64,000 bases of DNA from Microgenomates group bacterium (GCA_041659805.1 JBAZXP010000001.1:448589-512588); one strand, 5' to 3'; counted from the first letter of the stretch, positions 15,719 through 60,491 are shown. The notes: generated by a model from the sequence alone, not told the origin. Numbers and translations: made by a program.

Positions 15719-15731
15719 GTATACTCATAGC

Positions 15732-24255: not shown

Positions 24256-24277
24256 AAATTTTTAAAACTCGCTACTG

Positions 24278-25504: not shown

Positions 25505-25510
25505 CTAAAT

Positions 25511-26386: not shown

Positions 26387-26389
26387 AGA

Positions 26390-33946: not shown

Positions 33947-34240
33947 TTGCTGACTTACAGAAGTTGTGATATTGTTAAATTAATGAGTAAAAAGAATATA
34001 TTCGTTGTAATAGGATTCTTGATATTAGGCTTAATTAGTACCTATATTGCTACTCTAATTGAAATTTTAATGAGCAGTAAAGTACTATCAGGAGCATCAG
34101 GTTTTCCGTTTAAGTATGGATATTCTTCTTTTTTTGGTGGTTCGACTATCAATCAATCAATGTTCATTGTTGATGTTATATTTTGGGCTGTTGTTTTATT
34201 TGGAATTTGGAAGTTATTTTTAAAACTTTCAAGAAGATAA
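33947..34240 (+). CDS. Hypothetical small membrane protein (SGxGFPF motif)
   Basis: 97 aa with two TM helices. It contains SGASGFPFKYG, resembling the divergent neighbour. Confidence 0.35.
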   Translation: MLTYRSCDIVKLMSKKNIFVVIGFLILGLISTYIATLIEILMSSKVLSGASGFPFKYGYSSFFGGSTINQSMFIVDVIFWAVVLFGIWKLFLKLSRR

Positions 34241-39613: not shown

Positions 39614-40312
39614 ATGAAAATTGATGCTTTATCTGTCTTTTTTCCGGCTTTTAATGAAGAGGAAAACATAACTTCTACAATTACAAAAGCAAATGATGTT
39701 TTAGCCTCACTTTCCTTAAAAGATTACGAAATAATTGTGGTGGATGATGGTTCAAAGGATAAAACAGTAGAAACTGTTAATAACCTAATAAAAACAAATA
39801 AACATATACGTCTTGTGAGTCATGAGGTTAATAAAGGATATGGTGAAGCATTAAAAACTGGGTTTAGAGAGGCAAAATTTCCTTGGGTAGCTTTTGCTGA
39901 TGCAGATGGTCAGTTTGATTTTGCAGAAATTACTAAACTGATGGATGAAACAGATAAGGCTGATTTTATTTTAGGGTATCGCTTGAGAAGAGCAGATCCT
40001 TTTGTCAGGATTTTTTTCAATGTTGTTTGGATAATCGGTGCCAGAATTTTATTTGATTTTCCATCTCGGGATTATTCCTGTGGTTTCAAGTTGATTAAAA
40101 AATCTGCTTTTGATGCCACACTCCCCTTGCAGGCAGGAGAAAAAGTAACTCAAATAGAAATGTTGGTAAAAGCTAAAAGGCTTGGTTTTAAATTTGCAGA
40201 AGTCGGAGTTCATCACTACCCAAGAATGTTTGGCAAATCCACTGGTGGGAATTTATTGGTGGTATTTAAAAGCTATCTTGATCTGATTAAATTGTGGTGG
40301 AAATTACATTAG
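39614..40312 (+). CDS. GT2 polyprenol-phosphate glycosyltransferase (Dpm1/ArnC-like)
   Basis: 232 aa with LSVFFPAFNEEENI...IIVVDDGSKDKT...FADADGQ (DxD). Confidence 0.75.
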   Translation: MKIDALSVFFPAFNEEENITSTITKANDVLASLSLKDYEIIVVDDGSKDKTVETVNNLIKTNKHIRLVSHEVNKGYGEALKTGFREAKFPWVAFADADGQFDFAEITKLMDETDKADFILGYRLRRADPFVRIFFNVVWIIGARILFDFPSRDYSCGFKLIKKSAFDATLPLQAGEKVTQIEMLVKAKRLGFKFAEVGVHHYPRMFGKSTGGNLLVVFKSYLDLIKLWWKLH

Positions 40313-40315
40313 TTT

Positions 40316-41827
40316 ATGAAGTCTTCAATTCAATGGATTAAACGAAATCGGTTTGAAGCAATTATTATTATTTTGATAATAGTGGTGGCCTCTTTTCTCA
40401 GATTTTATAAGCTTTCTGATTACATGACTTTTTTAGGTGATGAGGGCAGGGATGCTTTAATAGTTAAAGATATCTTAGTTGAGCATATTATCCCCTCAAT
40501 TGGTCCCCCATCATCTGTGGGGAATGTGTATTTAGGTCCTTTGTATTACTATATGATGGCGACTTCTATGGCAATTTTTTGGCTTAACCCCGTGGCTGCT
40601 GCAGGAATGGTGGCTTTGATCGGAGTGATGGCTGTTGCTCTGATTTATTATTTAGCCCGGGTTTGGTTTGGAATGTATTCTGCAATTTTATCAGCCTCAC
40701 TTTATGCCCTATCTTTTGTGGTTACTTTTTACTCCAGATCTTCCTGGAATCCTAACCCTGCCCCTTTTTTTACACTTCTGGCTGTTTTGGGGTTTTATAA
40801 AGCCAGACAAACCAAGAATTTTTTGTGGCTTATTTTAACCGGATTGAGTACTGCAGCAGCTGTGCAGATGCATTATCTGGCTTTGATTTTAATCCCGGTT
40901 TTCGGTATTTTATATATTTTTGAGCTCTTTCAGCAAAAAAAATTACAGGAATACAATTATTTTATATCAGGTGCATTTTTGGGGGTGGTGTCATTTATTC
41001 TGGTAATGTTACCGCTTATATTATTTGATTTCCGTCATGATTTTTTAAACTATCGTGGGGTTGTTGCCCTATTTACTAAAAGCGGCAGTAGCGTGAGTTT
41101 TAATCTTTTTGACAGTCTGGCAAAAATTTCACCAATTTTCGATCAAAAATTGGTTGGAAGATACTTGGGCGCAGAAAATCCGTTAATTATTTTTCTGGTT
41201 TCTATTTTTATTATTACTCCGATAATGATTGCTCTGTATAAAGTTGTTTACAAAAAAGAAGCAATGAGCTGGTCAATAAAAGCTCTTAGTGTTTGGCTGG
41301 CGGTAGGTCTTTTTGGGGTCTCCTTATTCAGACTGGAAGTATATGATCATTATCTGGGTTTTTTGAGCCCTGTGCCATTTTTACTTTTAGGTGCTTTTAT
41401 TTTTGAATTGCCTGATAAATGGAAAAAAATTGCAGCAGCGCTAATTATTATTATATTGGGATTTTTGAATTTGCAGCAAAACGTATTGTTTAAGCCTGCA
41501 GGTAATCAATTTACCCGTACTCGGGAAATTGCACAATTTGTGCTTAATGAAGCCGGAAATAAACCTTTTAATTTTGCTTTGATTTCAAAAAATAATTATG
41601 ATTCAGCGTATCAATTTTATTTCTATATTTACGGGCATGAACCCAAAGTAGTGCCAATTGATGTGACTGACCAATTGTTGGTTGTTTGTGAGGATCCTAT
41701 ATGTAAACCTGTCGGTAATGCCAAGTATGAAATTGCAGGATTCGGCTGGACTTTAATGGATAAAGAAACTTATTTTGACGGAGTCAGAATTTATAGACTT
41801 ATACATAATTCGGCTCAGCCCAAATGA
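40316..41827 (+). CDS. Polytopic membrane protein, GT-C-like (family C)
   Basis: 503 aa with FLGDEGRDALIVKDIL...GPLYYY. It is a paralog of 12650 and 41824 and sits 4 nt after the upstream stop. Confidence 0.5.
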   Translation: MKSSIQWIKRNRFEAIIIILIIVVASFLRFYKLSDYMTFLGDEGRDALIVKDILVEHIIPSIGPPSSVGNVYLGPLYYYMMATSMAIFWLNPVAAAGMVALIGVMAVALIYYLARVWFGMYSAILSASLYALSFVVTFYSRSSWNPNPAPFFTLLAVLGFYKARQTKNFLWLILTGLSTAAAVQMHYLALILIPVFGILYIFELFQQKKLQEYNYFISGAFLGVVSFILVMLPLILFDFRHDFLNYRGVVALFTKSGSSVSFNLFDSLAKISPIFDQKLVGRYLGAENPLIIFLVSIFIITPIMIALYKVVYKKEAMSWSIKALSVWLAVGLFGVSLFRLEVYDHYLGFLSPVPFLLLGAFIFELPDKWKKIAAALIIIILGFLNLQQNVLFKPAGNQFTRTREIAQFVLNEAGNKPFNFALISKNNYDSAYQFYFYIYGHEPKVVPIDVTDQLLVVCEDPICKPVGNAKYEIAGFGWTLMDKETYFDGVRIYRLIHNSAQPK

Positions 41828-43323
41828 AAAGAATAAAGAAAGAAATTCAATCTCATAAAATATATTATTTTTTAGTTTTCGTCATCTTACTTTGTGCTTT
41901 TGTTTTAAGGGTGTGGAGAATAGATCAGCTATTGGGTTTTTATTTTGATCAGGGCAGGGACGCCTTAATAGTGGACCAGATACTTCATGGAAAATTGACG
42001 CTTATCGGTCCAACAACTGGGATTGAAGGAATTTTTTTAGGACCGTTTTATTATTATTTTTTAAGCATTGGATATCTACTGGGACAGGGAAACCCCGCTG
42101 TTGCCTCAATTTTTCAAACCTTTTTTGTAATTGTCGGACTACTAATTACATTTTTAATAGGCAGAATATTTTTTTCATTCAGGGTTGGTCTGATTGCCAT
42201 GTTTTTAATGACTTTTTCATTTTCTCAAATAAAATTAGACCGCTGGTTATCAAACCCAACGCCGGCTATTTTATTTGGTCCCCTGACCATATTTTTTCTT
42301 TTATTAAGTTTTAATAATCCAAATATATTTTTGCCCCTTTCGGCTTTTTCTGTGGGTTTATTAATGCAACTTGAAGCCTCCAGCAGTTTTATTTTAATGA
42401 TTTTAACATTCTTGTTTATTATTATTTTCAGAAAAAAATTCACCCCAAAATCAATTATGTTTGCGTGTCTAGCTTTTTCTGCTACATTACTACCACAAAT
42501 TATTTTTGAATTAAAACATGATTTTTTGATCACAAAATTATTACTCAGTTTTCTTGGCGGTAATGTTCAGACAACAGGGGTATCAACTTTCCAATTTCCA
42601 ACAACCTTAACTTTTCAAAACAGACTTGATCTTTATGCTGTAACTTTTTTGGGTGAATTGAAACTGGATTTTGATAAAAGTTTTAGTTTTCTATTTATTA
42701 TTTTCTTAATTGCCAGCTTTCTATATATAACAAAAAACTGGTCTAAAATGGCAATTAAATTAATGGTAATTTGGTTTTATGGTTCACTGATTTTTTTCCT
42801 ATTTTATAGCGGAAACTATGGCTCTATAAACAGCTATTATTTTATTCCGGTACTACCGATATTTTTTATATTTATTGCCTTGCTTTTAGAATGGGGTTTT
42901 AAATTCAAAATATCTATTCCAATTGTGGCTTTGTTATTGGCACTATTTCTATATGATCAGCTGCCGATGTCACTCAGCTATCTTTCCAGTGGAGTAGAAG
43001 GGGATACCACAATTGCTTTGGGTAGCCAGGTAAATGCTGTGAAATATGTACTTAATAATGCAAGCGATAAAGAATATAACTGGGACGCTTATGTACCCCC
43101 TGTAATACCTTATACTTATACATATTTATTTAAGTATTACGGAAATAAATACCAACGTATGCCGACAGATGCTCAGGTAAGTACTCTTTATACTATTCAT
43201 GAAGTGGACATATCACATCCTGACAGAGAAACTGCATGGTTAAAAAGACAAGCCGGAATTGGTAAAATAATAGATACACAAAGATTTGGTGGTGTAACTG
43301 TAGAGAGACGAGAAAGAATATGA
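41824..43323 (+). CDS. Polytopic membrane protein, GT-C-like (family C)
   Basis: 499 aa with FDQGRDALIVDQILHGKLTLIGP...GPFYYY. An ATGA overlap with the upstream gene indicates coupling. Confidence 0.5.
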   Translation: MKRIKKEIQSHKIYYFLVFVILLCAFVLRVWRIDQLLGFYFDQGRDALIVDQILHGKLTLIGPTTGIEGIFLGPFYYYFLSIGYLLGQGNPAVASIFQTFFVIVGLLITFLIGRIFFSFRVGLIAMFLMTFSFSQIKLDRWLSNPTPAILFGPLTIFFLLLSFNNPNIFLPLSAFSVGLLMQLEASSSFILMILTFLFIIIFRKKFTPKSIMFACLAFSATLLPQIIFELKHDFLITKLLLSFLGGNVQTTGVSTFQFPTTLTFQNRLDLYAVTFLGELKLDFDKSFSFLFIIFLIASFLYITKNWSKMAIKLMVIWFYGSLIFFLFYSGNYGSINSYYFIPVLPIFFIFIALLLEWGFKFKISIPIVALLLALFLYDQLPMSLSYLSSGVEGDTTIALGSQVNAVKYVLNNASDKEYNWDAYVPPVIPYTYTYLFKYYGNKYQRMPTDAQVSTLYTIHEVDISHPDRETAWLKRQAGIGKIIDTQRFGGVTVERRERI

Positions 43324-44063
43324 AAAATATCAAATTGACTGTTGTTATTCCTGCTTTTAATGAAGCAGACAATCTTAAAAAAGGCGCTCTGGAGTCCGTT
43401 TACCAGTATCTTAAAAATCAAAAATATAGTTATGAGGTTTTGATTGTTGATGACGGTTCGTTAGACGCAACAGTGACACTTGTTGAAAGTGTTATTAAAA
43501 ATATGCCCGGTTTTAGAATTGTAAAAAACTCTCACGGCGGTAAGGCGATTACAGTCATGAGCGGTTTGCTTATGAGCAATGGGGAGATCGCCCTTTTTAC
43601 AGATATGGATCAGGCTACCCCTATTGATCAAATAGAAAAGCTTTTACCAAAATTTGAAGAAGGATTTGATATTGTGATTGGTTCAAGACATGGTAGGGAA
43701 GGCGCACCGGCCATCCGCAAATTAATGGGTTGGGGGTTTTCTGTTTTACGAAAACTAATATTGGGTCTGCCTTTTGCTGATACGCAATGCGGATTTAAAG
43801 CATTTAATAAAAAATCCATTCAGCTGATATTTCCGGAACTTTTGGAAAGGTGGAAAAAGACCGGGACAAGCGGGGCTGCAGTAAATGCAGGTTTTGATGT
43901 CGAGACGCTTTTTATTGCCAGAAAAAAAGGATTAAAAATTGCTGAAGTTCCTGTTGACTGGAGACATGTCGGAACAGAACGGGTACAGGCAGTCAGGGAC
44001 TCTTTGGAGGCGTTAAAAGACATGGCACGTATTAAAATTAATGATATACAAGGGAAGTATTAA
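43320..44063 (+). CDS. GT2 polyprenol-phosphate glycosyltransferase (Dpm1/ArnC-like)
   Basis: 247 aa with LTVVIPAFNEADNL...VLIVDDGSLDAT...FTDMDQA. It overlaps the upstream stop. Confidence 0.75.
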   Translation: MKNIKLTVVIPAFNEADNLKKGALESVYQYLKNQKYSYEVLIVDDGSLDATVTLVESVIKNMPGFRIVKNSHGGKAITVMSGLLMSNGEIALFTDMDQATPIDQIEKLLPKFEEGFDIVIGSRHGREGAPAIRKLMGWGFSVLRKLILGLPFADTQCGFKAFNKKSIQLIFPELLERWKKTGTSGAAVNAGFDVETLFIARKKGLKIAEVPVDWRHVGTERVQAVRDSLEALKDMARIKINDIQGKY

Positions 44064-45435
44064 ACGCTTTTTTCAAAGTAAAATTGATTCCGTAATTGTT
44101 GCACTGCTTGCTTTATCGCTGCCCCTTTTTTTCTACAAACTCGGTCAGTCATCGCTGGAGAATTGGGATGAGGCCTGGTATGGAGAGATTGCTAAAAACA
44201 TATTTCATTCAGGTGATTTTCTCAATTTAACTTTTAACGGTAGTCCATATTTTGATCATCCGCCGTTTGTTTTTTGGTTGATGTCACTTACATATAAAAT
44301 TTTTGGTGTATCTGAGTTTTGGACTAGATTTGCCAGTGCCGGGGCCGGTTTTCTTTGTATTGTGATTTTATATTTTTTAGGGAAAGAGTTATTTAACCGC
44401 ACAGTTGGATTTGCCTCAGCCGTAGCTTTGTCTTCTGCAATCTGGTTTGTGTACCGCGCCCGTTCAGGCAATCTGGATGTTATTTTAACAACTCTTTTTG
44501 TACTTACATTTTATCTGGCGTTTAAGGCAGTAAAAAATAAAAAATTCTTAATCCCCTTTTCAGTCAGTTTATCTTGTTTATTTCTAACCAAATCTATGGT
44601 TCCTTTTACGATTATCCTGTCGCTGTTGTTAATTTTTTGGGGGAATAAAAATTATAAAATTAAAGAATATGTAATACCCCTTTTGATATTTATTTTATCT
44701 ACAGGTGTTTGGTTTATCGATCAACTAATTAATCAGCCGAATTTTACCGGGAGATATTTAAGCATCGGTTTGCCCGGTTTAACAACGGAAACTTCTTATT
44801 TAAACAATTTTAATCTTGCAAAAGGGTATTTACATAGCGGTATTGGGAAATGGTTTTGGCCGGGGGTGTTTTCTATGTTTTTGGGATTGTTTCTTTTTCA
44901 AAAAAGATTTTTTGTTTTCTCTCTTTTTTTCCTGGTGTTTTTTATACCTTTAATATTTTCCACAAAAGGACAAATTTGGCATTTAATACCATTGCATCCG
45001 TTTCTTATTCTGATGTTTTTCGGTGCAAGTTCGTTTTTACTAGAAAAAATAATTAAAAACAGAATCTTAGTAACTATTTTGCTAATCGGGATATCCTTTT
45101 ACTTTTCGTTTATGCAAATTAGGCAAATATGGTTTCAATTTATCGATATTCCGGCCTTTATTTCTGATGAGGCAATTCTTTCAAAAGAAGCAGGATTATA
45201 TAGTGATAAATTTTATATTGATGGTGATTTTGTTCCGGTGGCTGTTTTTTATTCCGGCAGGGAGGTGGAAATAATTAGGTATAATGGTTTGAAAACAATA
45301 TTCAGTTACAACCAGCCATTTTTGCTCATTACTGTAAAATGGAGGCTGGATGAAGCTAACATTCCAGAGAGTAGATACCGTATAATAAAAACAGATCGTG
45401 ATAAAATTTTGATTCAGGGAAACATTAATGAATAA
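44041..45435 (+). CDS. ArnT/PMT-like GT-C glycosyltransferase (GT39/GT83-like)
   Basis: 464 aa. The first-loop motif ENWDEAWYGEIAKNI...FDHPPFVFWLMS is the PMT_2/ArnT signature, and about 11 TM helices are predicted. Confidence 0.6.
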   Translation: MIYKGSIKRFFQSKIDSVIVALLALSLPLFFYKLGQSSLENWDEAWYGEIAKNIFHSGDFLNLTFNGSPYFDHPPFVFWLMSLTYKIFGVSEFWTRFASAGAGFLCIVILYFLGKELFNRTVGFASAVALSSAIWFVYRARSGNLDVILTTLFVLTFYLAFKAVKNKKFLIPFSVSLSCLFLTKSMVPFTIILSLLLIFWGNKNYKIKEYVIPLLIFILSTGVWFIDQLINQPNFTGRYLSIGLPGLTTETSYLNNFNLAKGYLHSGIGKWFWPGVFSMFLGLFLFQKRFFVFSLFFLVFFIPLIFSTKGQIWHLIPLHPFLILMFFGASSFLLEKIIKNRILVTILLIGISFYFSFMQIRQIWFQFIDIPAFISDEAILSKEAGLYSDKFYIDGDFVPVAVFYSGREVEIIRYNGLKTIFSYNQPFLLITVKWRLDEANIPESRYRIIKTDRDKILIQGNINE

Positions 45436-46978
45436 AGGATTAAAGATTATTTTATATAATATTTTGCAACATAAATGGGAATCTTTGGCCTTTGTTTTGA
45501 TTATCATTTTATATTTTGGATTAAGGTTGCCTAACTTAACCCTACAGCCCATTTTTGCAGATGAAGCGATTTATATAAGATGGGCTCAGATCATGAAGGC
45601 AGAACCAACCCTGCGTTTTATTTCTCTTACTGACGGAAAGACACCTTTGTTTATGTGGGTAATGACTCCTTTTTTCAAGATGTTTAATGATCCTTTGTTT
45701 GCAGGTAGAGTTATATCTGTTTTATCAGGTTTTATGACTATGCTTGGAGGAATGTTTTTAGGTTGGAGATTTTTTGACAGGAAAGTTGCCCTTTGGTCGG
45801 GTTTGCTGATTGCTGTCACCCCATTTGTTTTATTTTTTGACAGGATGGCTTTGGTTGATTCTATGTTGGCAGCGTTTTCTATTTGGTCTTTAATTTTTGC
45901 ATTAATTTTGGTTAAAAGCCCCCGTTTTGATTTAAGTATGATATTGGGTTACATACTAGGCGGGGGACTCTTAACAAAGACTCCAGGTTTGTTTAATGTT
46001 TTAATGCTTCCTGCTGCATTTTTTGCATTTAACTGGTCTTTTGATAATAGGCAAAAGAATTTTATTAAAACTGCCGGATTTTTTGTAATTGCAGCAGCAA
46101 TTGCTATGGGAATATATAATTTGCTCCGTTTAGGCCCGGGCTTTGAGAGCCTTTCTTCCCGAAATCAGGATTATATTTTCCCTTTCACAAGAATATTTAC
46201 CAATCCTCTGGACCCTTTAGTCCCTCATTTAAAGGATTTAGCTGATTGGTTTTTCAAGTTGATTACTTTGCCAATATTGTTATTTACAATACTGGGAATA
46301 ATTTTGACATTAGTCAAAAGGAATAAAGTTGCTTTGGTAATTTTGCTTTGGTTGCTTGGTCCATTAACAGCTGAGTTATTTTTACTGCAAACATTTACTG
46401 CCAGATATATTTTATCAGCAATTGCTCCGTTATTATGTTTGTCAGGTTTAGCAATAAGCTTTGTTGTAGAAAAAAGCCGGTTCAAAAAAGAGGTTACCTA
46501 TCTTGCTATTCTGGTGTTTATTTTACCGATGGCTTTGATGTTTAACTTTACCCTATTAACCGATCCGGCAAAAGCGGATTTACCCCGCGAAGAAAGAATC
46601 GGTTATTTTGAAGATTGGACAGCAGGTTATGGTTTTCCGCAAATCGCAGATTTTCTTATTCAACAAGCACAAAACGGGCTGGTAGTTGTCGGGACGGAAG
46701 GTAATTTTGGGACACTTCCTGATGGTTTGACAATTTATTTAGATAAATATTTCCATACTCAGGGGGTAAATAAAATAGTAGTTTTGGGTGGAAAAGGAAC
46801 CATTACTGATGTATTGCGCGATAGTGCAAAAAGAGGACCTACATATTTTATTGCCAATAGGTCTAGGGTGACTCAAAATCCGCCGAATACAGAATTGATT
46901 AAGGAATATCCAAAGGCTAATTTCCCCGGAGCTTTTAAGGATTCTATTTTGGTCTTTAAGGTAAGTCCTGTTAAATGA
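45428..46978 (+). CDS. ArnT/PMT-like GT-C glycosyltransferase
   Basis: 516 aa with FADEAIYIRWAQIM in the loop after TM1 and a multi-TM body. A C-terminal soluble domain follows. Confidence 0.55.
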   Translation: MNKGLKIILYNILQHKWESLAFVLIIILYFGLRLPNLTLQPIFADEAIYIRWAQIMKAEPTLRFISLTDGKTPLFMWVMTPFFKMFNDPLFAGRVISVLSGFMTMLGGMFLGWRFFDRKVALWSGLLIAVTPFVLFFDRMALVDSMLAAFSIWSLIFALILVKSPRFDLSMILGYILGGGLLTKTPGLFNVLMLPAAFFAFNWSFDNRQKNFIKTAGFFVIAAAIAMGIYNLLRLGPGFESLSSRNQDYIFPFTRIFTNPLDPLVPHLKDLADWFFKLITLPILLFTILGIILTLVKRNKVALVILLWLLGPLTAELFLLQTFTARYILSAIAPLLCLSGLAISFVVEKSRFKKEVTYLAILVFILPMALMFNFTLLTDPAKADLPREERIGYFEDWTAGYGFPQIADFLIQQAQNGLVVVGTEGNFGTLPDGLTIYLDKYFHTQGVNKIVVLGGKGTITDVLRDSAKRGPTYFIANRSRVTQNPPNTELIKEYPKANFPGAFKDSILVFKVSPVK

Positions 46979-53477: not shown

Positions 53478-53490
53478 TCATTAGTAAATT

Positions 53491-56400
53491 ATGGTATTTT
53501 TTAAAAAACTTTTTTTCAGTTTAATTATTTTTTTATGTTTAAGTTTAGTTTCATCTGTTTACGCGGTTGATAACTCTTTTGTGACGGTAGTGAACCCTAT
53601 TAGAGGAAATGATTTTTGGGATCAACCAAGTCAGAAAATAGAAACAGCTGTTTTGGGTCAAATTCAAATTTTAAATGAGTTTAGGCTTCCTGCTACATTT
53701 TTAATCCGTTTTGATGCATTTTCATCTGATAAAACAATCAATGTATTAAAAAATTCAGGTTATGAAAAAGGATTATTTTTGGAAGTAACTCCTTCCTGGA
53801 CTAAAGCCGCGGGAGTGAGTTACAGGCAATCTGCTGTCTGGCATTTGGCAGGAAGTGTTTTTTTAAGCGGTTATGAGACGCAGGAAAGAAATAAATTAAT
53901 TGATACAGCATTCGAAGAGTTTAAAAAAACATTCGGTTTTTATCCGAAATCTGTGGGAGCTTGGTGGATTGATAGTTACTCGCTTGAGTACATGCAGACA
54001 AAATACAATATTGATGCAGCATTGATTGTGGCAGACCAATATTCAACAGATAACTATCAAATCTGGGGACAATATTTCGCAACCCCATATTATCCTGCCA
54101 AGAAAAATGCCTTAATGCCCGCACAGGATGTTAAAAATAAAATTTCGGTCGTCATGATGCAGTGGGCAACCAGAGACCCTATAAATGGCTATGGGGAAGG
54201 GGTGAATGAAACAACTTACAGCGTGCAGGCAAATGATTATATTGATTATCATAAATTAAATTCAGATTACTTCGGGAAGTTAATTGATTTGTATACAACA
54301 CAGCAATTTAACCAATTTAATCAGCTTGTTGTAGGTTTGGAAAATTCCTATTCCTGGCAAAAATATGAATCTGAATACCGTAAACAGATTGAAATATTAA
54401 GTAACAGGCAGCAAAAAGGACAATTATCAATCTTAACAATGGCAGATTTTGCTAAATGGTATGAACGCACATTCCCTGATTTATCCCCTGCACAAATAAT
54501 TGTGGCAAATGACCCGTTGGGTTCTTCTAAAAAAGTTGTATGGTACATGAATCCTTATTACCGCGCTGGTTGGTTTTACAATCAAAACGGGAGTGCCTTC
54601 CGTGATATCAGACAATATGTCGAAGGGGAGACAGAACCCTGCTACCTTTCAGCATGTCAGCAAATAAACTTTGCTACTTTTTCAACAAGAGTGCTTGATG
54701 ATGTGACTTACGGACAAAAATTAGTTTTGGATAAAGGTAAGATTAATGATTTTAATGTTAAAAAAGGTACGGGATTTATTTTAAACTATACTAATGAAGC
54801 CGAAAGAAAAAGACAAATTAGTTTTTTGCCAAGAGATATTTCAATTGATGACAAAATCAGCTCGATTGATAATTTAATCTTGCAGACCAAGAATACTCAA
54901 ACTGATAGTTCTAAAATAAAAGTTGAATTTACGCCGGGTACTACTAAGTATTTTCAAGAGTCATCCGGCACTTTGATTATTAATATTCTAAAATTTCTTT
55001 TATTTGTTATTTTAGGCTTATTTATTCCGGGGTTTTTGATTGTTAAATTTTTAAAACAAGAATCAGTATTTCTAAATATATTTTTATCCATATGCAGTGG
55101 TTTTGTTATGTTAGTTTTGATGTCTTTTGCTGTAGGTTATTTAAAAATGTTTTGGCTGACATATATTTATGTAGCACTTTCTTTTTTAATTTTTATTTTT
55201 GGAAAATTCTACAAGGAGATATCTTTTAGAGAAATAAATTTACCTAAAATCAAAAATTTATTACCAGTCATAATAATTATATTCTTTGGGACTATCTTTC
55301 AATCATTAATAATGATCCGTTCAGGTTGGGTTTATGATTTTGGAATCGGTTTTTGGGGTCCTACAGGTCATGATATGGTTTGGCACCAGGCATTGGTTAA
55401 TCAATTAATTAACAATGTTCCTCCTCAAAATCCAATTTTAGCCGGAGAATCATTGCAGGGATACCACTATTTTTATGATTTATTAGTCGCAGATACATTT
55501 CGGTTAACCCAAATTTCTATTTTGGATTTACTCTATAGATTTTATCCTGTAATGTTTTCTATATTTTTAGGAATCGGGACTGTTTGTTTGCTTAACAGAA
55601 TTACCAAAAATAAAATTATTGTTTTAATTTCTTTATATTTTGTTTATTTTGCAGGTAGCTTTGGTTGGATTGTTACATATCTCCGAGATAAGATTTTTAG
55701 CGGGGAATCAGTCTTTTGGGTCAATCAACCTGTTTCGATGAATCTTAACCCGCCCTTTGCGATTTCTTTAATTCTAATGATTGCGATTATTTTATTAGTG
55801 ATCGTTTTTAGACTGAGAAAAAGTGTTTGGTGTTCTGCCTTGCTGGTTTTGCTTATTGGGACTTTGGTTGAATTTAAGGTTTATGCAGGGGTGGTGGTAC
55901 TGGGTGGTATGTCTGTAATGGTTTTGACAGAAATTCTTTTCAGGAGAAACTTTGAATACTTAAAGATTTTTTCTGTGGCGGCAATTGTTTCAATAGTATT
56001 GTTTATATCTCAAAATAAAGGCGCAATCGGATTATTGGTTTGGTCTCCGTTTTGGTTTATTGACTCGATGATTGATTCTCCGGATAGGGTAGGGTGGGCT
56101 AAATTATCTTCTGCAAGGCTTGCCTATTTTGAAAGGGGAGAGTGGTTAAAATATGTAGCTATCGAAGTTTTATCCTTGAGTATATTTATTTTGGGTAATT
56201 TGGGACTTAGAATAATATCTTTTTCCAGGATAAATCTCTTATTTAAAAAAGACTTTTGGCAAACAACAGAATATCCTTTTATGCTTTTTATGGGGTTTGC
56301 ATCTCTAATAATTCCGATATTTTTGATTCAAAAAGGTAACCCCTGGAATACGATTCAATTTTTGTACTATTTAATTTACTTAATTGCTCTTTCTGCAGGT

Positions 56401-56928
56401 TTCGGACTATATGCTTTATATAGAAAATTACCAAAAATTATCGGACTAGTATTTTTAGGGATTGTTCTGTTATTGGCGCCTGTTAATGCAGTAGTGTCTT
56501 TTACGGATACTTTGGGTCAAATACCGCCTGCTTCACTTAGCCAAAATGAGTTGGAAGCATTAAATTTTCTTGCCAAACAGCCGGATGGGGTCGTTTTGAC
56601 TTACCCCTATAACGATTCATTGAACAGTAAATTTTTAACCCCAATTCCTCTTTTTGCTTATACAACCTCAGCTTATGTTTCTGCTTTTTCCGGGAAGCAA
56701 ACATATATTGAAGACACTATGCAAAATGAAATTTTACAGACAGATTACAATCCGAGACTCGTTGCAGCAGAAGATTTTTTTAGTAGCGGCATAATGCCAC
56801 CAAGTTTGGAAGGGAAAATAAGATATGTTTATCTGCCTAAGTTTTTTGAAATTAATGTAGATACAAGTAAACAATGGAAAAAGATTTTTGAAAATAAGGA
56901 AGTATTAATCTATGAGATTAGTAGTTAA
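53491..56928 (+). CDS. Giant polytopic membrane protein: N-terminal extracytoplasmic domain (about 480 aa) plus a GT-C-like multi-TM module plus a C-terminal extracytoplasmic domain
   Basis: 1145 aa with a signal/TM segment followed by a soluble domain of unknown fold. About 14 TM helices carry WHQALVNQLINNVPPQNPILAGESLQGYHYFYD. The tail resembles the protein at 60488..62443. Confidence 0.45.
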   Translation: MVFFKKLFFSLIIFLCLSLVSSVYAVDNSFVTVVNPIRGNDFWDQPSQKIETAVLGQIQILNEFRLPATFLIRFDAFSSDKTINVLKNSGYEKGLFLEVTPSWTKAAGVSYRQSAVWHLAGSVFLSGYETQERNKLIDTAFEEFKKTFGFYPKSVGAWWIDSYSLEYMQTKYNIDAALIVADQYSTDNYQIWGQYFATPYYPAKKNALMPAQDVKNKISVVMMQWATRDPINGYGEGVNETTYSVQANDYIDYHKLNSDYFGKLIDLYTTQQFNQFNQLVVGLENSYSWQKYESEYRKQIEILSNRQQKGQLSILTMADFAKWYERTFPDLSPAQIIVANDPLGSSKKVVWYMNPYYRAGWFYNQNGSAFRDIRQYVEGETEPCYLSACQQINFATFSTRVLDDVTYGQKLVLDKGKINDFNVKKGTGFILNYTNEAERKRQISFLPRDISIDDKISSIDNLILQTKNTQTDSSKIKVEFTPGTTKYFQESSGTLIINILKFLLFVILGLFIPGFLIVKFLKQESVFLNIFLSICSGFVMLVLMSFAVGYLKMFWLTYIYVALSFLIFIFGKFYKEISFREINLPKIKNLLPVIIIIFFGTIFQSLIMIRSGWVYDFGIGFWGPTGHDMVWHQALVNQLINNVPPQNPILAGESLQGYHYFYDLLVADTFRLTQISILDLLYRFYPVMFSIFLGIGTVCLLNRITKNKIIVLISLYFVYFAGSFGWIVTYLRDKIFSGESVFWVNQPVSMNLNPPFAISLILMIAIILLVIVFRLRKSVWCSALLVLLIGTLVEFKVYAGVVVLGGMSVMVLTEILFRRNFEYLKIFSVAAIVSIVLFISQNKGAIGLLVWSPFWFIDSMIDSPDRVGWAKLSSARLAYFERGEWLKYVAIEVLSLSIFILGNLGLRIISFSRINLLFKKDFWQTTEYPFMLFMGFASLIIPIFLIQKGNPWNTIQFLYYLIYLIALSAGFGLYALYRKLPKIIGLVFLGIVLLLAPVNAVVSFTDTLGQIPPASLSQNELEALNFLAKQPDGVVLTYPYNDSLNSKFLTPIPLFAYTTSAYVSAFSGKQTYIEDTMQNEILQTDYNPRLVAAEDFFSSGIMPPSLEGKIRYVYLPKFFEINVDTSKQWKKIFENKEVLIYEISS

Positions 56929-56942
56929 AATAAAATAATAAA

Positions 56943-58595
56943 ATGTTTAGTTTACTTAAGAAAATATTATCAAACTATTTATTTTGGCTGACAGTTATTA
57001 TTGTTTTCGCATTTTTTATCAGGACTTTTGATTTAGCGAATAATCCCCCCGCAATGTATGGGGATGAGCTGACAATCGTTTATGATGCTTATTCAATTCT
57101 TAAAACCGGTCATGATCAGACAGGCCAATTTCTTCCTCTGACATTCAAGATGGGGGACGGAAGACCCCCCTTCTATGTATATGCAACTATCCCGTTTGTT
57201 GCTTTATTCGGCCCGACAGCTGTGGGTGTTAGGGCTTTGTCAATACTCTCAGGTTTAGGGATAATTTTAATTACCTTTTTCCTAACAGAAATTTTAATAA
57301 GTAAGCGGGCAGCCTTGTTTGCGTCTTTTTTGCTTGCAATTTCTCCCTGGGATATTGCGCTTAGCAGGGGAGGTTTTGAAACTCATCTTGCTTTATTTCT
57401 GATTCTCCTTGGGATATTTTCTTTTATTAAAGCAAGGGAAAAACCGTTTTGGTTGATTTTTTCAGCATTATCCTTAGGTCTTGCAATACATACTTATCAT
57501 TCATATAAAGTTCTGGTTCCGCTCGTAATAATATTGCTTCTATTCCTAATAGACATAAAAAGTTTTTTTGTAAAAAAATCCATTAAATTTTTAATTTCTT
57601 CAGTATTAATTTTCTTTATACTTTTTTCAGTATGGGTATTTTTAATTTTTAATGGATCTGAAGGAAGATTCAATAATACCAATGTTTTTTCTAATCCTGA
57701 TATTGCCCGCAGCGAAATCGATTCTACTGTTACTCAAAGAAATCAAAATAATCTTCCGTTTGGTTTAAATAATCTTTTTTATAATAAATATGTTTTTTAC
57801 GCAGGAGTTTTAGAACAAAATTATATTGATAATATTTCCCTAAGCTTTTTATTTAGCAGTGGCGATCGTAACCCACGTCATAACCCTTTCGCTATGGGTG
57901 AATTATATCTGGCCCAATTTTTTCTAATTCTTATTGCGTTGCTGACTAAGCTTAACCAGCATAAGAAACTAATGATTTTTCTGATCGGTTGTATTCTTAT
58001 TAGCCCTATTCCCACATCAGTGGTATCGAACGGGCATGCTTTGCGAAGCAGTTTTCTTTTGTTTCCGCTTACCATATTATCCACAATGGGCATGGAGACT
58101 GTAATTCAAAATTACCGGAGATTTTTAAAGATTAGAATATTTTTGGCATTTATAATTGCAATCTTTTTATTACAGTTTATATGGTTGATAGGAAATTTAT
58201 TTTATGTGTCAGGAGATAAGTATGCCAATTTTTGGTCTTTTTCTGCTAAAAAAGCGAGTACAGAGGCCTTAGAAAACAGGCAGAAATTTAATTACATTTT
58301 TCTGTCTACTCATATAGACAATATGGAGTTTGCATATCCAACATATGCAGCGATTGATCCGGAATTAGTAATTGCTGAAAACCGACAGCCAAAAATCATT
58401 GGAAAATATAGCTTCAAACAGTTTGAAAATATTTATCTAGGAGCTGTTCCTAATTCTGAAGTTAATGATTTTATTGCGGGTCTTTCCGGAAACGTACTCT
58501 ATATCGGTGAAGCAGACGCCTTAAAGGAAGTAAAAAATTATGATACGATTAATGGGTTAAATAATCAGCCGGCACTAATTAAGGTAGAAAAATAA
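56943..58595 (+). CDS. ArnT/PMT-like GT-C glycosyltransferase (PMT_2-like)
   Basis: 550 aa with MYGDELTIVYDAYSILKTGHDQTGQFLPL in the first loop. It is a paralog of the partial ORF at 63677. Confidence 0.6.
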   Translation: MFSLLKKILSNYLFWLTVIIVFAFFIRTFDLANNPPAMYGDELTIVYDAYSILKTGHDQTGQFLPLTFKMGDGRPPFYVYATIPFVALFGPTAVGVRALSILSGLGIILITFFLTEILISKRAALFASFLLAISPWDIALSRGGFETHLALFLILLGIFSFIKAREKPFWLIFSALSLGLAIHTYHSYKVLVPLVIILLLFLIDIKSFFVKKSIKFLISSVLIFFILFSVWVFLIFNGSEGRFNNTNVFSNPDIARSEIDSTVTQRNQNNLPFGLNNLFYNKYVFYAGVLEQNYIDNISLSFLFSSGDRNPRHNPFAMGELYLAQFFLILIALLTKLNQHKKLMIFLIGCILISPIPTSVVSNGHALRSSFLLFPLTILSTMGMETVIQNYRRFLKIRIFLAFIIAIFLLQFIWLIGNLFYVSGDKYANFWSFSAKKASTEALENRQKFNYIFLSTHIDNMEFAYPTYAAIDPELVIAENRQPKIIGKYSFKQFENIYLGAVPNSEVNDFIAGLSGNVLYIGEADALKEVKNYDTINGLNNQPALIKVEK

Positions 58596-58603
58596 AAGAT
58601 TAT

Positions 58604-59848
58604 ATGAATTTTTTGAAAGATAAATACATTGTTAAAATATTTGTATTAGCACTTTTAATTAGGTTGATCATAATGCCTTTTTATTTTCATCCTGATATCA
58701 AAACTTACAATTTTCAGTCATCTTTTCTAAAACAAGGTGTTGTTGATATTTACTCATACCTTATTACAAATAAAGAAAAGCTGCCTTTGAAAGATGAGTT
58801 TGTATATTTTCCGCTAACGTATTTTTCTTTGGGTGGATATCAGATAATAATGCAGCCATTTTTGGGTAATAATTTTCAGTTATGGTTAGGGGATGCTTCC
58901 CAGAATGCAATTGATCAGACAGGCGTTTTCCGATACTTATTTATTTTAAAACTGCCTTATCTGATTTTGGATTTTGCCACTGCAATTATTTTAATGAAAT
59001 TATTTGATGATAATAAAAAAAAGAGAGCTGTATTAACTTTATGGTTACTGAATCCTTTTTCATTGGCATTAATCTATATCTTTAGTAATATAGATATTTT
59101 TCCTGTTTTTTTAACTGTACTGAGCTTATATTTTTCCAAAATAAATAAAATAATGATTGCATCGCTTTTGATAGGTTTGGCAGCAGGATTTAAGGCATAC
59201 CCTATACTTTTTATTCCATTTTTATTCTTTTATGCTCAGGGCTTAAAGCAAAAAACATTAGTGGTTGTTCCGGGATTAATTGCATTTTTTGCAGTGATTG
59301 CTCCATTTTTAAAGTCCTCCGGCTTCCAACAGGCAACAATTGCTTCTGGGCTAACAACCAGAATTATCTCGCCCACTTTTGCCATTGGTTTTAGCGAAAG
59401 CCTAATCATTGCTATGATTTCTTTAGGAGCTCTTTTTTTCTATGCATTTAATCTTGAAAATTTTAAGTTTGAGCGGCTACCACAATTTTATTTAGCAGCC
59501 TTATTATTAATTTTTTCTTCAATTCATTTTCATATTCAATGGTTGTTGTGGATGATTCCGTTTATAATTATTATTGGAGCTATACATAAACGATTTCTCG
59601 CCTCGCTGTTTGTTCTTTTGACTACTGCAATATTTATCCCCTTATTATATCCGGACCATTTTATGGGTTTTTCCCTGATGGAGCCGATCAGCTCTTATTT
59701 CATTCCATTGCCCACATTATTTCAGATAACTCAGAGATTTTATGACCCTTACGCCATTCAAAGCATTTTACACAGTGTATTTTTGGGAGGATCGATTATA
59801 TTAATAGTTCAAATGTTTGGAGGAGAAAAAAATGAAACAATTGAATAA
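58604..59848 (+). CDS. Polytopic membrane protein, possible GT-C-like (DUF2029/GT87-like?)
   Basis: 414 aa with about 11 TM helices. Its conserved loop reads GFKAYPILFIPFLFFYAQG. Confidence 0.35.
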   Translation: MNFLKDKYIVKIFVLALLIRLIIMPFYFHPDIKTYNFQSSFLKQGVVDIYSYLITNKEKLPLKDEFVYFPLTYFSLGGYQIIMQPFLGNNFQLWLGDASQNAIDQTGVFRYLFILKLPYLILDFATAIILMKLFDDNKKKRAVLTLWLLNPFSLALIYIFSNIDIFPVFLTVLSLYFSKINKIMIASLLIGLAAGFKAYPILFIPFLFFYAQGLKQKTLVVVPGLIAFFAVIAPFLKSSGFQQATIASGLTTRIISPTFAIGFSESLIIAMISLGALFFYAFNLENFKFERLPQFYLAALLLIFSSIHFHIQWLLWMIPFIIIIGAIHKRFLASLFVLLTTAIFIPLLYPDHFMGFSLMEPISSYFIPLPTLFQITQRFYDPYAIQSILHSVFLGGSIILIVQMFGGEKNETIE

Positions 59849-60491
59849 TATTTTTTTAGTAGTTATTTCATTCATTATTCTAATGCCTGTGATTATTGGT
59901 TTGAATATCCGTTCGACTCAGGATCCTATACAGCCTTCATTCGCAGGAACCGAAAAAATTTTTCAATCCGTTTTAGTTTCACAAAAATTTCTTTCTAAAG
60001 AGAATGGCTTGTCTGGTATTGGTATCAGTATAAAAAACCCAAACTTAGCAAATAAAAATGAATTAACCCTTTCTCTTTATGAAGGAGAAAGGGCAATCCG
60101 GAGTTTATCAATTAATGGGGGAGCGATTGAGGACGGGAGCCTGTTAAGGTTTTTATTTCCTAAAATCCCGGATTCAAAAGGAAAAGTATATACTTTTGTT
60201 TTAAATTCTCCTGCGTCTGTAGAACCTGAGGCATTTGAGGCGTATCTTACTAACGAAAAATTTTCAGATGAAAGTTTGATAGTAAACAATAATGAAAGAC
60301 AAGATAATGTGTCTTTCATTAGAATATATAAATCCGGTAATCCAATTGCGGTTTTGGGAGAAATTTTTTCCGGTGTATTTGTTAAATTATTTAATGATTT
60401 AATTTTTTCTGTATTCTATATAACTTTAGTTCTCAGTTGTGTTGTTTATTTGATCTTGGATATATTTAAAAGTGACCGTAAGTCTTATTAA
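59817..60491 (+). CDS. Hypothetical bitopic protein with an extracytoplasmic domain
   Basis: 224 aa with N- and C-terminal TM helices flanking a soluble domain of about 150 aa. It is the last gene of the co-directional array, and its start may instead be Met6. Confidence 0.35.
   Translation: MEEKKMKQLNNIFLVVISFIILMPVIIGLNIRSTQDPIQPSFAGTEKIFQSVLVSQKFLSKENGLSGIGISIKNPNLANKNELTLSLYEGERAIRSLSINGGAIEDGSLLRFLFPKIPDSKGKVYTFVLNSPASVEPEAFEAYLTNEKFSDESLIVNNNERQDNVSFIRIYKSGNPIAVLGEIFSGVFVKLFNDLIFSVFYITLVLSCVVYLILDIFKSDRKSY

Follow-up and report, generated by a model that had tools for sequence, protein, structure and literature searches.

What does a bacterium with a genome of about 1 Mb make with ten GT-C membrane glycosyltransferases encoded in a single run of genes? 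The run lies in a window of 64,000 nucleotides (the whole stretch of DNA analysed here), taken from a ~1.13-Mb contig of a Microgenomates (Daviesbacteria-related) MAG; the host is an uncultivated, tiny-genome CPR bacterium. The original prediction described positions 39614-60491 as a translationally coupled array of three GT2 synthases, about ten GT-C enzymes and a Wzx flippase. Our analysis points to a conserved operon for an undescribed surface sugar coat made outside the cell membrane.

Fourteen consecutive ORFs, all on the + strand, were recovered between 39614 and 60491 at exactly the predicted coordinates, save for two starts: that of the ninth gene moves from TTG 48639 to ATG 48654 and that of the last from TTG 59817 to ATG 59832. 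With these corrections, the starts of all genes coincide with independent NCBI and JGI calls (exact-sequence look-ups), so the overlaps are not an artefact of ORF calling. Spacing at the 13 junctions ranges from -29 to +14 nt (NCBI starts). Nine are overlaps, in line with the claim that most junctions overlap: five are exact 4-nt ATGA overlaps (at 41824, 43320, 46975, 48654 and 51984), four measure 8, 17, 23 and 29 nt, and the last four junctions are gaps of 3, 8, 13 and 14 nt. Apart from these genes, the array contains just two ORFs of 100 aa or more, both short and antisense (42225-42533 and 45196-45552); they are nested in larger genes and most likely spurious. Consensus scans revealed no enrichment of promoter-like sites (72 vs 83 expected) or terminator-like sites (14 vs 14.2 expected) within the array. 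Because tight 4-nt overlaps are also frequent elsewhere in the window (4982, 30560, 31372, 32247), coupling is a genome-wide style and no special property of the array. The proposed boundaries were too narrow, as two genes precede 39614 (37202-38386 and 38383-39549) and two follow 60491 (60488-62443 and 62488-63672); the locus extends over ~37202-63672 as a mostly co-directional cluster.

The predicted gene order is borne out by Pfam HMM, BLASTP, profile-profile and fold tests, and all family calls stand up to HMM, profile-profile or fold testing, with identities that can be refined. The GT-C enzymes number exactly ten (40316, 41824, 44041, 45428, 46975, 48654, 50299, 53491, 56943 and 58604) and fall into four sequence families: ArnT-like PMT_2, PF10131, GT87/PIG-M-like and one represented by a giant protein. 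The refined array thus comprises two GT2 enzymes without TM helices, five ArnT-like PMT_2 enzymes, three PF10131 enzymes, Wzx, the giant, the GT87/PIG-M-like GT-C and a CBM-like protein. Across 37202-63672, each GT-C candidate has 9-13 hydrophobic segments in a crude Kyte-Doolittle scan (the giant has 15). Mapping of acidic residues in the first outside loop, as had been proposed, placed a DE, DD, DxD or HPD motif after TM1 in 14 of 16 candidates.

Two of the three predicted GT2 synthases lie inside the array, and the third, at 37202, lies outside it. The first (39614..40312, +; 232 aa; Pfam GT2 100.5 bits) has ArnC (2e-14), GtrB (1.5e-11) and DPMS (1.7e-10) as its nearest PDB relatives; it lacks a C-terminal TM segment of the kind found in ArnC and GtrB, and its one hydrophobic stretch (129-147, crude scan) falls within the catalytic domain. 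The second (43320..44063, +; 247 aa; 89.6 bits) has no TM helix and is nearest to GtrB (4.9e-15), DPMS (8e-13) and ArnC (1.8e-12). Judged by sequence, the GT2 enzymes are closest to the polyprenyl-phosphate glycosyltransferases ArnC, GtrB and DPMS. The third (37202..38386, +) is a DPMS-type polyprenyl-phosphate sugar synthase that joins a GT2 catalytic domain (Glycos_transf_2, 70 bits) to a GtrA-like 4-TM domain (GtrA_DPMS_TM, 72.9 bits), and is named 'GtrA family protein' by NCBI and 'dolichol-phosphate mannosyltransferase' by JGI. Its full-length alignment (residues 3-355, E 2e-36) to the archaeal-type DPMS of Pyrococcus furiosus (5mlz) confirms the predicted fusion but does not imply a flippase role, since the GtrA-like domain belongs to the synthase in P. 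furiosus DPMS. The three-component logic of GT2 synthase, flippase and GT-C transferase is still the best available reading; what does not stand is its one-to-one iteration, as classical GT2-then-GT-C pairs number just two (39614 with 40316, and 43320 with 44041/45428), beyond which lie eight further GT-Cs and one Wzx.

Among the PMT_2 enzymes, the gene at 40316..41827 (+; PMT_2 39.6, PMT 34.9 bits) encodes a D-E motif directly after TM1, and the divergent member at 41824..43323 (+) encodes FDQGRD after TM1. The latter scores 21.9 bits against PMT_2, below the 26.1 cut-off, and is related by BLASTP to 40316 (1e-19) and 14195 (3e-25); NCBI names both 'GT39'. The remaining three carry WDE (44041..45435, +; PMT_2 67.5 bits), ADE (45428..46978, +; PMT_2 49.1 bits) and GDE (56943..58595, +; PMT_2 45, PMT 36.9 bits) after TM1. 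The second of these, P4, is a core member, and its PMT_2-like family profile matches ArnT (5ezm) at 3.4e-19; this lipid-A-modifying enzyme, not a PMT, is the sole solved sequence relative of the profile. Two flanking genes are also related. A PMT-like GT-C (38383..39549, -; PMT 23.9 bits, cut-off 22.7) with ~10 hydrophobic segments, a 'phospholipid carrier-dependent glycosyltransferase' according to NCBI, is divergent from the array and keeps this position in relatives. A divergent PMT_2-like membrane protein (62488..63672, +) has 11 hydrophobic segments and 26% identity to 56943 (BLASTP, 9e-6), with neither a Pfam match nor an acidic motif after TM1. Its orthologs sit among the copies of 56943 in relatives; of all the candidates, it has the least secure claim to be a GT-C.

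The trio predicted as YfhO-like does consist of three related GT-Cs, but they belong to the PF10131 'PTPS_related' family; their YfhO scores fall below the cut-off and they are only loosely YfhO-like. The first (46975..48657, +; PTPS_related 26.0 bits, cut-off 26.4; YfhO 22.9 bits) is 37% identical to the second (48654..50327, +; 43.9 bits, above the cut-off), whose ATG start at 48654 is that of NCBI protein MFA5932949. The third (50299..51987, +) has an SDD motif after TM1 and no direct Pfam match, and is related by BLASTP to the second (9e-65) and the first (8e-57). An hhalign comparison using alignment A3, of which this protein is the first sequence, links the PF10131 and PMT_2 families (probability 98.6%, E 1e-15) and places the DD of the former on the DE of the latter.

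The Wzx call is secure: the protein encoded at 51984..53477 (+) belongs to the MOP superfamily (Polysacc_synt_3 176.4 bits) and has 12 hydrophobic segments. The 1145-aa giant downstream, predicted to be GT-C-like, contains a GT-C module and also a DUF3863-like barrel, and is thus a two-domain enzyme. Its N-terminal part (53491..54957, +) has a signal peptide, a beta-rich subdomain and a secreted (beta/alpha)7 barrel of DUF3863 type ('glycoside hydrolase/deacetylase'); in its C-terminal part (54958..56928, +) the GT-C core is accompanied by three extra TM helices and, at the C-terminus, by a small domain that lies outside. Judged by its predicted fold, the GT-C module is an unmodelled GT-C family: its TM domain is best matched by STT3B, ALG12 and AglB, and no sequence link to other GT-Cs was detected (probability 7%). 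The usual DxD/DE motif is absent, and an invariant HD occupies the first large outside loop and is kept in its paralogue. In the N-terminal domain, remnants of CE4-like motifs are conserved (F-D75, R228-D-P, D249-x-x-D252-Y-H); a clear CE4 His-His metal site is absent, so the domain may serve for binding and not for catalysis. Its identity to DUF3863 (PDB 3lm3, BDI_3119), of the CE4/GH57/ArnD (beta/alpha)7-barrel superfamily, is only 17%, and only 2 of 42 giant-family members match the DUF3863 Pfam model. Unlike 3lm3, the barrel is fused to a GT-C module, a combination for which we found no published description.

The "two more membrane proteins" that had been placed last are of different kinds. 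One is a small GT87/PIG-M-like GT-C, M87 (58604..59848, +), with GT87 (21.8 bits) and PIG-M (19.5 bits) scores below cut-off; 17 of 22 members of its family match GT87 (best E 2.6e-7), and D31, in an H-P-D motif after TM1, is invariant. The other, its partner, is a membrane-anchored CBM-like beta-jelly-roll (beta-sandwich) protein of 219 aa (59832..60491, +). On the opposite strand follows big2 (60488..62443, -), a stand-alone paralogue of the giant's GT-C module, whose whole length aligns with residues 495-1144 of the giant (BLASTP, 32% identity, 6e-89) and which conserves a GHDxxWH motif. Relatives keep these three genes as a module, with big2 reversed.

The giant is encoded by 475 species-level genomes, and the gene order (PMT_2, PF10131 copies, Wzx, giant) is kept across 44 independent related loci. 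In 43 of the 44, Wzx is the gene immediately before the giant; 42 have a P4 ortholog and 43 have one or more PF10131 copies; upstream genes are co-directional in 272 of 286 cases. Related loci contain a median of 10 GT-C-like ORFs, covering 74% of ~23 kb. The array is therefore a lineage trait, not peculiar to the source genome. It is commonplace in relatives, being kept throughout Daviesbacteria and still discernible in Collier-, Woese- and Shapirobacteria, but not identical in all: PF10131 copies range from 0 to 4, and copy numbers of PMT_2 enzymes, including those related to 56943 and 62488, of M87 and of big2 also vary. We found no published description of the array.

A second cluster of five GT-C-like genes (9490..18068; 9490 (-), 10911 (+), 12650 (-), 14195 (-) and 15732 (+)) has PMT_2, PTPS_related and YfhO matches and is paralogous to array genes; 15732 belongs to the YfhO family ('YfhO family protein' at NCBI). 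Together, locus and second cluster hold 18 GT-C-like genes, or 47% of the window's bases. Sugar supply is represented by rmlC/D/B, UDP-glucose dehydrogenase and an NAD-dependent epimerase/decarboxylase. The 64-kb window contains no detectable initiating phosphoglycosyltransferase (WecA/WbaP type), cytoplasmic GT-B/GT4 enzyme, LCP ligase or recognisable Wzy or WaaL, which leaves primer, acceptor and final attachment step unaccounted for.

Taken on sequence evidence, the locus probably serves to assemble or decorate an envelope glycan at the outside of the cytoplasmic membrane, with polyprenyl-phosphate sugars as donors. The family assignments come from the searches above; the chemistry and every functional step we infer from homology. 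Firstly, 37202, 39614 and 43320 would load monosaccharides from nucleotide sugars onto polyprenyl phosphate at the cytoplasmic face, the latter two as TM-less enzymes like human DPM1 or GacI and the first with its own TM domain. Wzx would then flip lipid-linked sugars and/or a lipid-linked oligosaccharide primer, perhaps helped by the GtrA-like domain of 37202. Outside the membrane, at least ten GT-Cs of four families would each add a specific residue or linkage; with three synthases for these, many transferases must share donors. The giant is probably the central transferase, polymerase or ligase for what has been flipped, and its fused barrel probably processes the same glycan. Finally, the CBM-like partner of M87 would hold the acceptor; GT-C enzymes that carry CBMs are known (PMC11127046).

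A rather unlikely alternative is that the GT-Cs are a variable toolkit of alternative side-chain adders, each modifying a pre-made polymer or lipid independently and kept for surface diversification (e.g., against phages or in host recognition), much as in serotype-converting Gtr clusters or with the three Lactococcus Csd pairs. The variable copy numbers fit such decoration as well, the two classical GT2-then-GT-C pairs are consistent with it, and organisms with several independent pairs are listed in a review (PMC8035078). However, the core (P4, at least one PF10131 copy, Wzx and giant) is near-invariant at 42-44 of 44 loci, with orthologs ~50% identical. Paralogues are 22-41% identical to one another, and recent duplicates are absent from the window (closest pair 41%); they are old, each with its own orthologs in other species, which speaks against recent redundancy and in favour of distinct steps, sequential or parallel. 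The tight co-directional layout also differs from scattered, often phage-borne serotype-converting cassettes, and the GC content is uniform with the flanks, so signs of a horizontal cassette are absent.

General protein O-glycosylation, in which ArnT/PMT-like enzymes would modify secreted, S-layer or pilus proteins from polyprenyl-phosphate sugars and other GT-Cs extend the protein-linked glycan, as in the actinobacterial Pmt and streptococcal Pgf machineries, seems quite improbable. It would accord with the PMT and PMT_2 matches, with the GT39 label that NCBI gives five of the genes, with a weak match of 15732 to the PgfM2 model (7e-9, far below its cut-off), with the polysaccharide primer, polymerase and ligase genes not found in the window, and with the oligosaccharyltransferases STT3, AglB and PglB among the giant's best folds. 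Against this, no protein of the locus has a MIR or PMT_4TMC domain (Pfam), the giant lacks WWDYG, DxD and any STT3 Pfam match, the only solved relative of the PMT_2-like profile is ArnT, and known bacterial protein O-mannosylation takes one GT-C, not ten. The reading of the membrane ORFs as transporters or other non-glycosyltransferases, with miscalled starts, is effectively refuted: 50299, 53491 and 59832 have no direct Pfam match and several PMT_2, GT87 and YfhO scores fall below curated cut-offs, but matches to GT-C families reach or approach the cut-offs for seven array proteins, the paralogy of 50299 to a protein above cut-off is unambiguous, profile-profile, PDB profile and fold searches all point to GT-C, the acidic motif is placed as in GT-C enzymes, and the starts are those of NCBI and JGI. 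The exception among the membrane ORFs is the Wzx, which had been called correctly.

An outer-face envelope glycan invites comparison with the transmembrane glycosylation systems GtrABC, ArnC-ArnE/F-ArnT, CsbB-GtcA-YfhO, GacI/J-GacK-GacL and Lactococcus CsdAB/CD/EF. Among the components of such systems are TM-less GT-A enzymes that have a partner and a flippase of Wzx type, GacK; transfer in them is extracytoplasmic (PMC8035078), as proposed for the array. Like them, the array twice has a GT2 synthase immediately upstream of a PMT_2-type GT-C; it shares a Wzx-type flippase with the GacK system, TM-less GT2 enzymes with the GacI/GacJ variant and, through its profile match, ArnT with the Arn system. 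Whereas the tabulated systems have one GT-C each and ~three per organism (PMC8035078), the array has ten of four families in one operon, and the window 18 in 64 kb. The array also differs in having only three synthases at the locus and no GacJ-like small partner or acceptor polymer pathway that could be found. One of its GT-Cs carries a hydrolase/deacetylase-like barrel in the same chain, and another has a separate CBM-like protein as its partner.

Mycobacterial arabinogalactan/LAM assembly has a GT87 (PimE-like) member in common with the array. That pathway comprises AftA-EmbC-EmbA-EmbB, AftB/C/D, PimE and other GT-C mannosyltransferases. It likewise uses many GT-Cs in sequence outside the membrane, with polyprenyl-phosphate-sugar donors, to make a wall polysaccharide; some of these GT-Cs are clustered in tandem, the largest known run being about four, and some have extra carbohydrate-binding domains. 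Unlike in mycobacteria, DprE/UbiA-type arabinose donor genes are absent from the window, no sequence-level relationship to the Emb/Aft families is present, and the host is a ~1-Mb CPR bacterium rather than an actinobacterium.

A last comparison is with the eukaryotic/archaeal lumenal pathway (DPMS, ALG3/9/12/6/8/10, STT3/AglB). Although the giant has no STT3 or ALG Pfam match, WWDYG or DxD, and a protein acceptor would be hypothetical, the locus resembles this pathway in its archaeal-type DPMS at 37202, in the STT3B, ALG12 and AglB folds that best match the giant's TM domain, and in a probable order of events in which a flippase is followed by serial GT-C additions from polyprenyl-phosphate sugars.

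The array of 14 plus-strand genes at 39614-60491 probably belongs to a lineage-conserved cluster that builds or elaborates an envelope glycan on the outer face of the cytoplasmic membrane. An ORF listing recovered the consecutive same-strand genes of the original prediction, and the only further ORFs of at least 100 aa within the array are two short antisense ones nested inside larger genes. The tight junctions that had been described are also present, as all 13 are tight, comprising five exact ATGA overlaps, four overlaps of 8-29 nt and four gaps of 3-14 nt. In an exact-sequence look-up, NCBI and JGI call the same array proteins and starts with two exceptions: the ninth gene begins at ATG 48654, corrected from a TTG, and overlaps the preceding gene by 4 nt, while the last begins at ATG 59832, likewise corrected from a TTG, with a 17-nt overlap and a product of 219 aa. 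The overlaps are therefore real as annotated, and miscalled starts are ruled out as their source, because the starts equal the NCBI and JGI protein starts and both corrected ATGs still overlap. Comparable overlaps also occur often in other parts of the window and thus point to genome compactness as much as to a special operon. Scans for promoter and terminator consensus sequences were uninformative in this AT-rich DNA. NCBI names half of the genes as GT2, GT39, flippase or PTPS-related and the remainder as hypothetical. Two NCBI series carry the same proteins, MFA59329xx (WC826_ tags) and MFA64534xx (WCV81_ tags), in each case on a contig of 1,130,263 bp; an ENA contig of 837,137 bp carries them too, and one population genome has apparently been submitted repeatedly.

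Ten membrane enzymes of the array belong, by profile and fold comparison, to the GT-C superfamily. By Kyte-Doolittle hydropathy, a crude measure compared with purpose-built topology prediction, each array GT-C has 9-13 hydrophobic segments and the 1145-aa giant protein at 53491-56928 has 15. Pfam scores exceed the cut-off for 40316, 44041, 45428, 48654 and 56943 and fall slightly below it for 41824, 46975 and 58604, and 50299 is assigned by paralogy. The ArnT-like members are 40316, 44041, 45428 and 56943, all above the PMT_2 cut-off, and 41824, which lies under it yet is a clear paralogue; the PMT_2-like family profile matches ArnT (5ezm) at 3.4e-19 across 363 positions. The three genes originally called YfhO-like (46975, 48654 and 50299) are paralogues of one another (27-37% identity, BLASTP E 1e-57 to 1e-113), and that name is only approximate because the YfhO scores are sub-threshold: 46975 reaches 22.9 bits against a cut-off of 28.5, and 48654 and 50299 have no YfhO match. 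Their best family is PF10131 (PTPS_related), whose cut-off is exceeded by 48654. Profile-profile comparison by hhalign links the PF10131 family to the PMT_2-like family with 98.6% probability (E 1e-15) and aligns the DD motif of the former with the DE motif of the latter. A DE, DD, DxD or HPD motif lies immediately behind the first transmembrane (TM) segment of nearly every GT-C candidate: DE in 40316, 44041, 45428 and 56943, DD in the three PF10131 genes, D-Q-G-R-D in 41824 and H-P-D in 58604. The predicted membrane sidedness would place this acidic motif in the first extracytoplasmic loop. The GT-C call thus stands against the alternative that these ORFs are transporters or other non-glycosyltransferases, which is ruled out by Pfam, the PF10131-PMT_2 hhalign result, the ArnT profile match and fold searches. 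They are not true GT39 protein O-mannosyltransferases (PMTs): only the N-terminal PMT/PMT_2 regions match in Pfam, no protein matches a MIR or PMT_4TMC domain, and 'GT39' in the NCBI naming denotes no more than the family level.

The giant has no Pfam or NCBIfam match, and a 42-sequence profile built on it matches no PDB sequence. Its closest named relatives are from Candidatus Daviesbacteria, and an identical MAG protein is WCV81_01650. The AF2 model displays a helical bundle, and this membrane part scores similarly against GT-C enzymes of many families (STT3B 18.3, ALG12 17.9, AglB 17.1, ArnT 16.7, AftA 16.2, PglB 15.3 and Pmt2 15.2), with which Foldseek concurs. Three TM helices precede the canonical GT-C core, consistent with the many stand-alone relatives that start at giant residue ~590. 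Its DUF3863-like barrel is predicted to be extracytoplasmic because the N-terminus resembles a cleavable signal peptide. Conserved acidic positions of the giant include D75, D229, D249 and E284. In the first large outside loop, after the fourth helix, lies an invariant G-H627-D628-x-x-W-H motif, which is retained in the stand-alone paralogue at 60488-62443 (32% identity, 6e-89). WW, WWD, DxD, DE and DD motifs are all missing from residues 481-1145, and neither the giant nor its 42 relatives have an STT3 Pfam match. An oligosaccharyltransferase of the STT3/PglB/AglB kind is therefore excluded by sequence criteria (no STT3 signature, WWDYG, DxD or DE), the general GT-C fold being all that the two have in common. 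In a set of 1.84 billion representatives, the family of this GT-C module makes up 1,312 clusters (50% identity), and relatives of residues 490-1145 fall into at least four length classes (~1130-1166, ~1010-1090, ~640-680 and ~550-600 aa), which suggests that the barrel and the three extra N-terminal helices have been repeatedly gained or lost.

Predicted synthases and a flippase accompany these transferases. The proteins encoded at 39614 (232 aa) and 43320 (247 aa) score strongly against GT2 in Pfam and, together with the predicted synthase at 37202, have ArnC, GtrB and the DPMS of P. furiosus as their best solved relatives. The two array proteins have no TM/interface region and lack the C-terminal TM anchor of ArnC, GtrB and DPMS, resembling TM-less GT2 variants that work with a separate membrane partner (PMC8035078). 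In a search for a small GacJ-like partner, the multi-TM ORFs at 30560-30835 (91 aa), 33289-33873 (194 aa) and 33947-34240 (97 aa), near the rml genes and the DPMS, gave no meaningful Pfam match (E up to 5) and count as candidate small flippase or synthase partners (GacJ/ArnE-like). The 37202 protein aligns over its full length with P. furiosus DPMS (5mlz, 2e-36), so its 'GtrA' part is the synthase's own TM domain. Besides this GtrA-like domain, the flippase component is the Wzx/MOP-superfamily protein at 51984, named 'oligosaccharide flippase family protein' by NCBI, which has 12 hydrophobic segments and scores of 176.4 bits for Polysacc_synt_3 and 102.9 bits for Polysacc_synt. The GT-C clusters are flanked by genes for nucleotide-sugar metabolism: rmlC, rmlD and rmlB of the dTDP-rhamnose pathway lie at 30839-33281, and a minus-strand UDP-glucose dehydrogenase (7110) and an NAD-dependent epimerase/decarboxylase (8471) lie at 7110-9493, beside a second GT-C cluster. 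In the related locus L011, the rml genes, DPMS and giant are directly adjacent. No rhamnosyltransferase was found in the window, although rmlBCD are nearby.

Two genes at the end of the array form a pair. The family of the GT87-like enzyme at 58604 matches GT87 in 17 of 22 members, some matching PIG-M or PIG-U, and the Asp of its H-P-D motif behind TM1 is invariant. Its neighbour, the 219-aa protein at 59832, is modelled as a CBM-like beta-jelly-roll rather than an alpha-helical PCP, which rules out the Wzz/CpsC-type chain-length regulator that a TM-loop-TM topology might indicate.

The original bounds of 39614-60491 proved too narrow, as the cluster reaches further on both sides. The upstream extension comprises the DPMS (37202) and, on the minus strand, a divergent PMT-like GT-C (38383-39549); the downstream one comprises the giant's paralogue, also on the minus strand, and a weak PMT_2-like protein (62488-63672). 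The second cluster (9490-18068, mixed strands) holds five GT-C-like membrane genes: two PMT_2, one PF10131, an unassigned paralogue and the true YfhO-family protein (15732-18068, 778 aa). Every one of these genes has a paralogue in the main array, and the closest paralogue pair of the window (9490 and 14195, 41% identical) lies within the second cluster. In total, the window contains 18 GT-C-like ORFs covering 30.3 kb, or 47% of its bases; some 30 kb of GT-C genes amounts to roughly 2.7% of the 1.13-Mb contig. A minus-strand gene adjoining the array (34241-37117), which has this position in loci L019 and L039 as well, encodes a protein of 958 aa that begins with a signal anchor and includes an alpha/beta-hydrolase domain resembling LCAT/PGAP1. 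Its product might act as a secreted lipase or acyltransferase, which would be a noteworthy activity in an organism presumed to scavenge lipids. Two minus-strand PcsB-like coiled-coil hydrolase paralogues (23041-27070, 54% identical), one with an M23 and one with a C39-like domain, directly adjoin FtsX and FtsE and form a duplicated cell-separation module.

A relative of the giant is encoded at 475 loci in a scan of one genome per species; the best 79 are mostly from Daviesbacteria, with some from Collier-, Woese- and Shapirobacteria. The ORFs of these loci were assigned to the proteins of the window by BLASTP, and the following counts refer to 44 independent loci of ~23.4 kb each. Wzx is immediately upstream of the giant in 43 of these, 42 have an ortholog of the ArnT-like 45428, and 43 have at least one PF10131 gene. 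GT-C-like ORFs number 4-12 per locus (median 10) and cover 74% of the DNA, and 272 of 286 upstream genes share the giant's direction. The left side (the reversed 38383-39549 gene, 39614, 40316, 43320 and 45428) is recognisable wherever the flank extends so far, including in Collierbacteria, where the giant is only 30% identical. Variable features are the number of PF10131 copies (0-4) and the presence of 56943 and 62488, the GT87-like enzyme and the giant's paralogue; the GT87-like enzyme, the 219-aa protein and the reversed paralogue recur together as a module. Given this conservation across 44 loci, the array is an old trait of the lineage, constant in its core and changeable at its periphery. 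The original prediction had allowed that the array might be commonplace and identical in all relatives; it does recur across the lineage, but its periphery differs between loci. A horizontal island is ruled out, as GC is uniform over the whole window, no GC or skew discontinuity is present and the cluster is syntenic across the lineage, and so is recent tandem duplication, the paralogues being 22-41% identical against ~50% for orthologs in other species. In locus L064 (Daviesbacteria GW2011_GWA2_42_7, 4009-9169), frameshifts, due to either misassembly or pseudogenisation, split the giant into three ORFs and the downstream paralogue into two. What resembles a 1.7-kb insertion in this giant is no insertion but its own frameshifted pieces and, after them, the paralogue. 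Among the public MAG records with this cluster, dozens are titled 'uncultured Gammaproteobacteria bacterium' (binchicken/SRP co-assemblies; loci L007-L082) and one 'Clostridia bacterium', titles that look like submission-level taxonomy errors, the cluster being unmistakably Microgenomates.

Below, we outline how such a cluster may operate. The GT2 enzymes would load polyprenyl phosphate, and Wzx, possibly with the DPMS TM domain, would expose lipid-linked sugars or a lipid-linked primer. The GT-Cs, putative users of polyprenyl-phosphate-linked donors given the co-encoded GT2 synthases, would then add residues outside the membrane. The giant, invariably beside Wzx, may act as the central enzyme of the pathway (transferase, polymerase or ligase), its fused barrel processing or binding glycan, and the neighbouring CBM-like protein in the membrane may hold the acceptor of the GT87-like enzyme. 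A division of labour in which a GT-C leaves acceptor binding to another protein has only been speculated on (PMC8035078), and this pair might offer a natural example. Weak points of the mechanism are that three synthases must serve at least ten transferases and that the window contains no initiating phosphoglycosyltransferase, cytoplasmic GT-B enzyme, LCP ligase or recognisable Wzy/WaaL. No separate acceptor pathway (LPS, teichoic acid, rhamnan or protein) is identifiable in the window.

A more far-reaching reading, put forward tentatively, is that the main surface glycopolymer of Microgenomates is built almost wholly outside the membrane on an ancient line of at least ten GT-Cs, with the giant, always coupled to Wzx, as a bifunctional polymerase/ligase. 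Just as tentatively, its centrepiece would be a secreted DUF3863-type hydrolase/deacetylase barrel joined to a previously unrecognised GT-C family with an H-D catalytic-loop motif. If true, Microgenomates would have a bacterial equivalent of arabinan synthesis in mycobacteria or of glycan assembly in the ER lumen, taking up ~2.7% of a 1.1-Mb genome. Two live alternatives concern the acceptor and the logic of the system. Independent variable decoration, in place of a single assembly line, is rather doubtful, and protein glycosylation is unlikelier still. Both overlap with envelope-glycan assembly or elaboration and are not mutually exclusive with it.

Minimal genomes and a presumed host-attached lifestyle make the scarcely described surface chemistry of CPR bacteria (Patescibacteria) central to their biology. 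A gene order kept even where the key enzyme is 30% identical implies a strongly selected envelope structure, which would be the product of an unusual, mostly extracytoplasmic route. The locus provides a defined gene set to seek in glycomics, cryo-ET and metatranscriptomics of Microgenomates, and the new GT-C family with its fused putative processing domain is a target for structural and enzymatic study. No published account of the array, the giant's architecture or a GT-C expansion in CPR was found in the full-text literature, drawn mostly from outside subscription journals, so this is not proof of novelty.

The individual parts are of known kinds, and the advance is the system rather than a new principle. 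Its proteins are members of the GT-C superfamily, the GT2 family and the Wzx flippases, and not true PMT/GT39 enzymes, oligosaccharyltransferases or, within the array, YfhO-family proteins. Three systems are its closest functional analogues. Mycobacterial arabinogalactan and LAM assembly employs many serial GT-Cs, a few of them in tandem, and a second analogue is the DPMS, ALG and STT3 pathway of the ER and archaea. The third, multi-component transmembrane glycosylation in Gram-positive and Gram-negative bacteria, has the roles of synthase, flippase and transferase in common with the array but uses one GT-C per system, whereas the array has ten (PMC8035078, PMC11127046).
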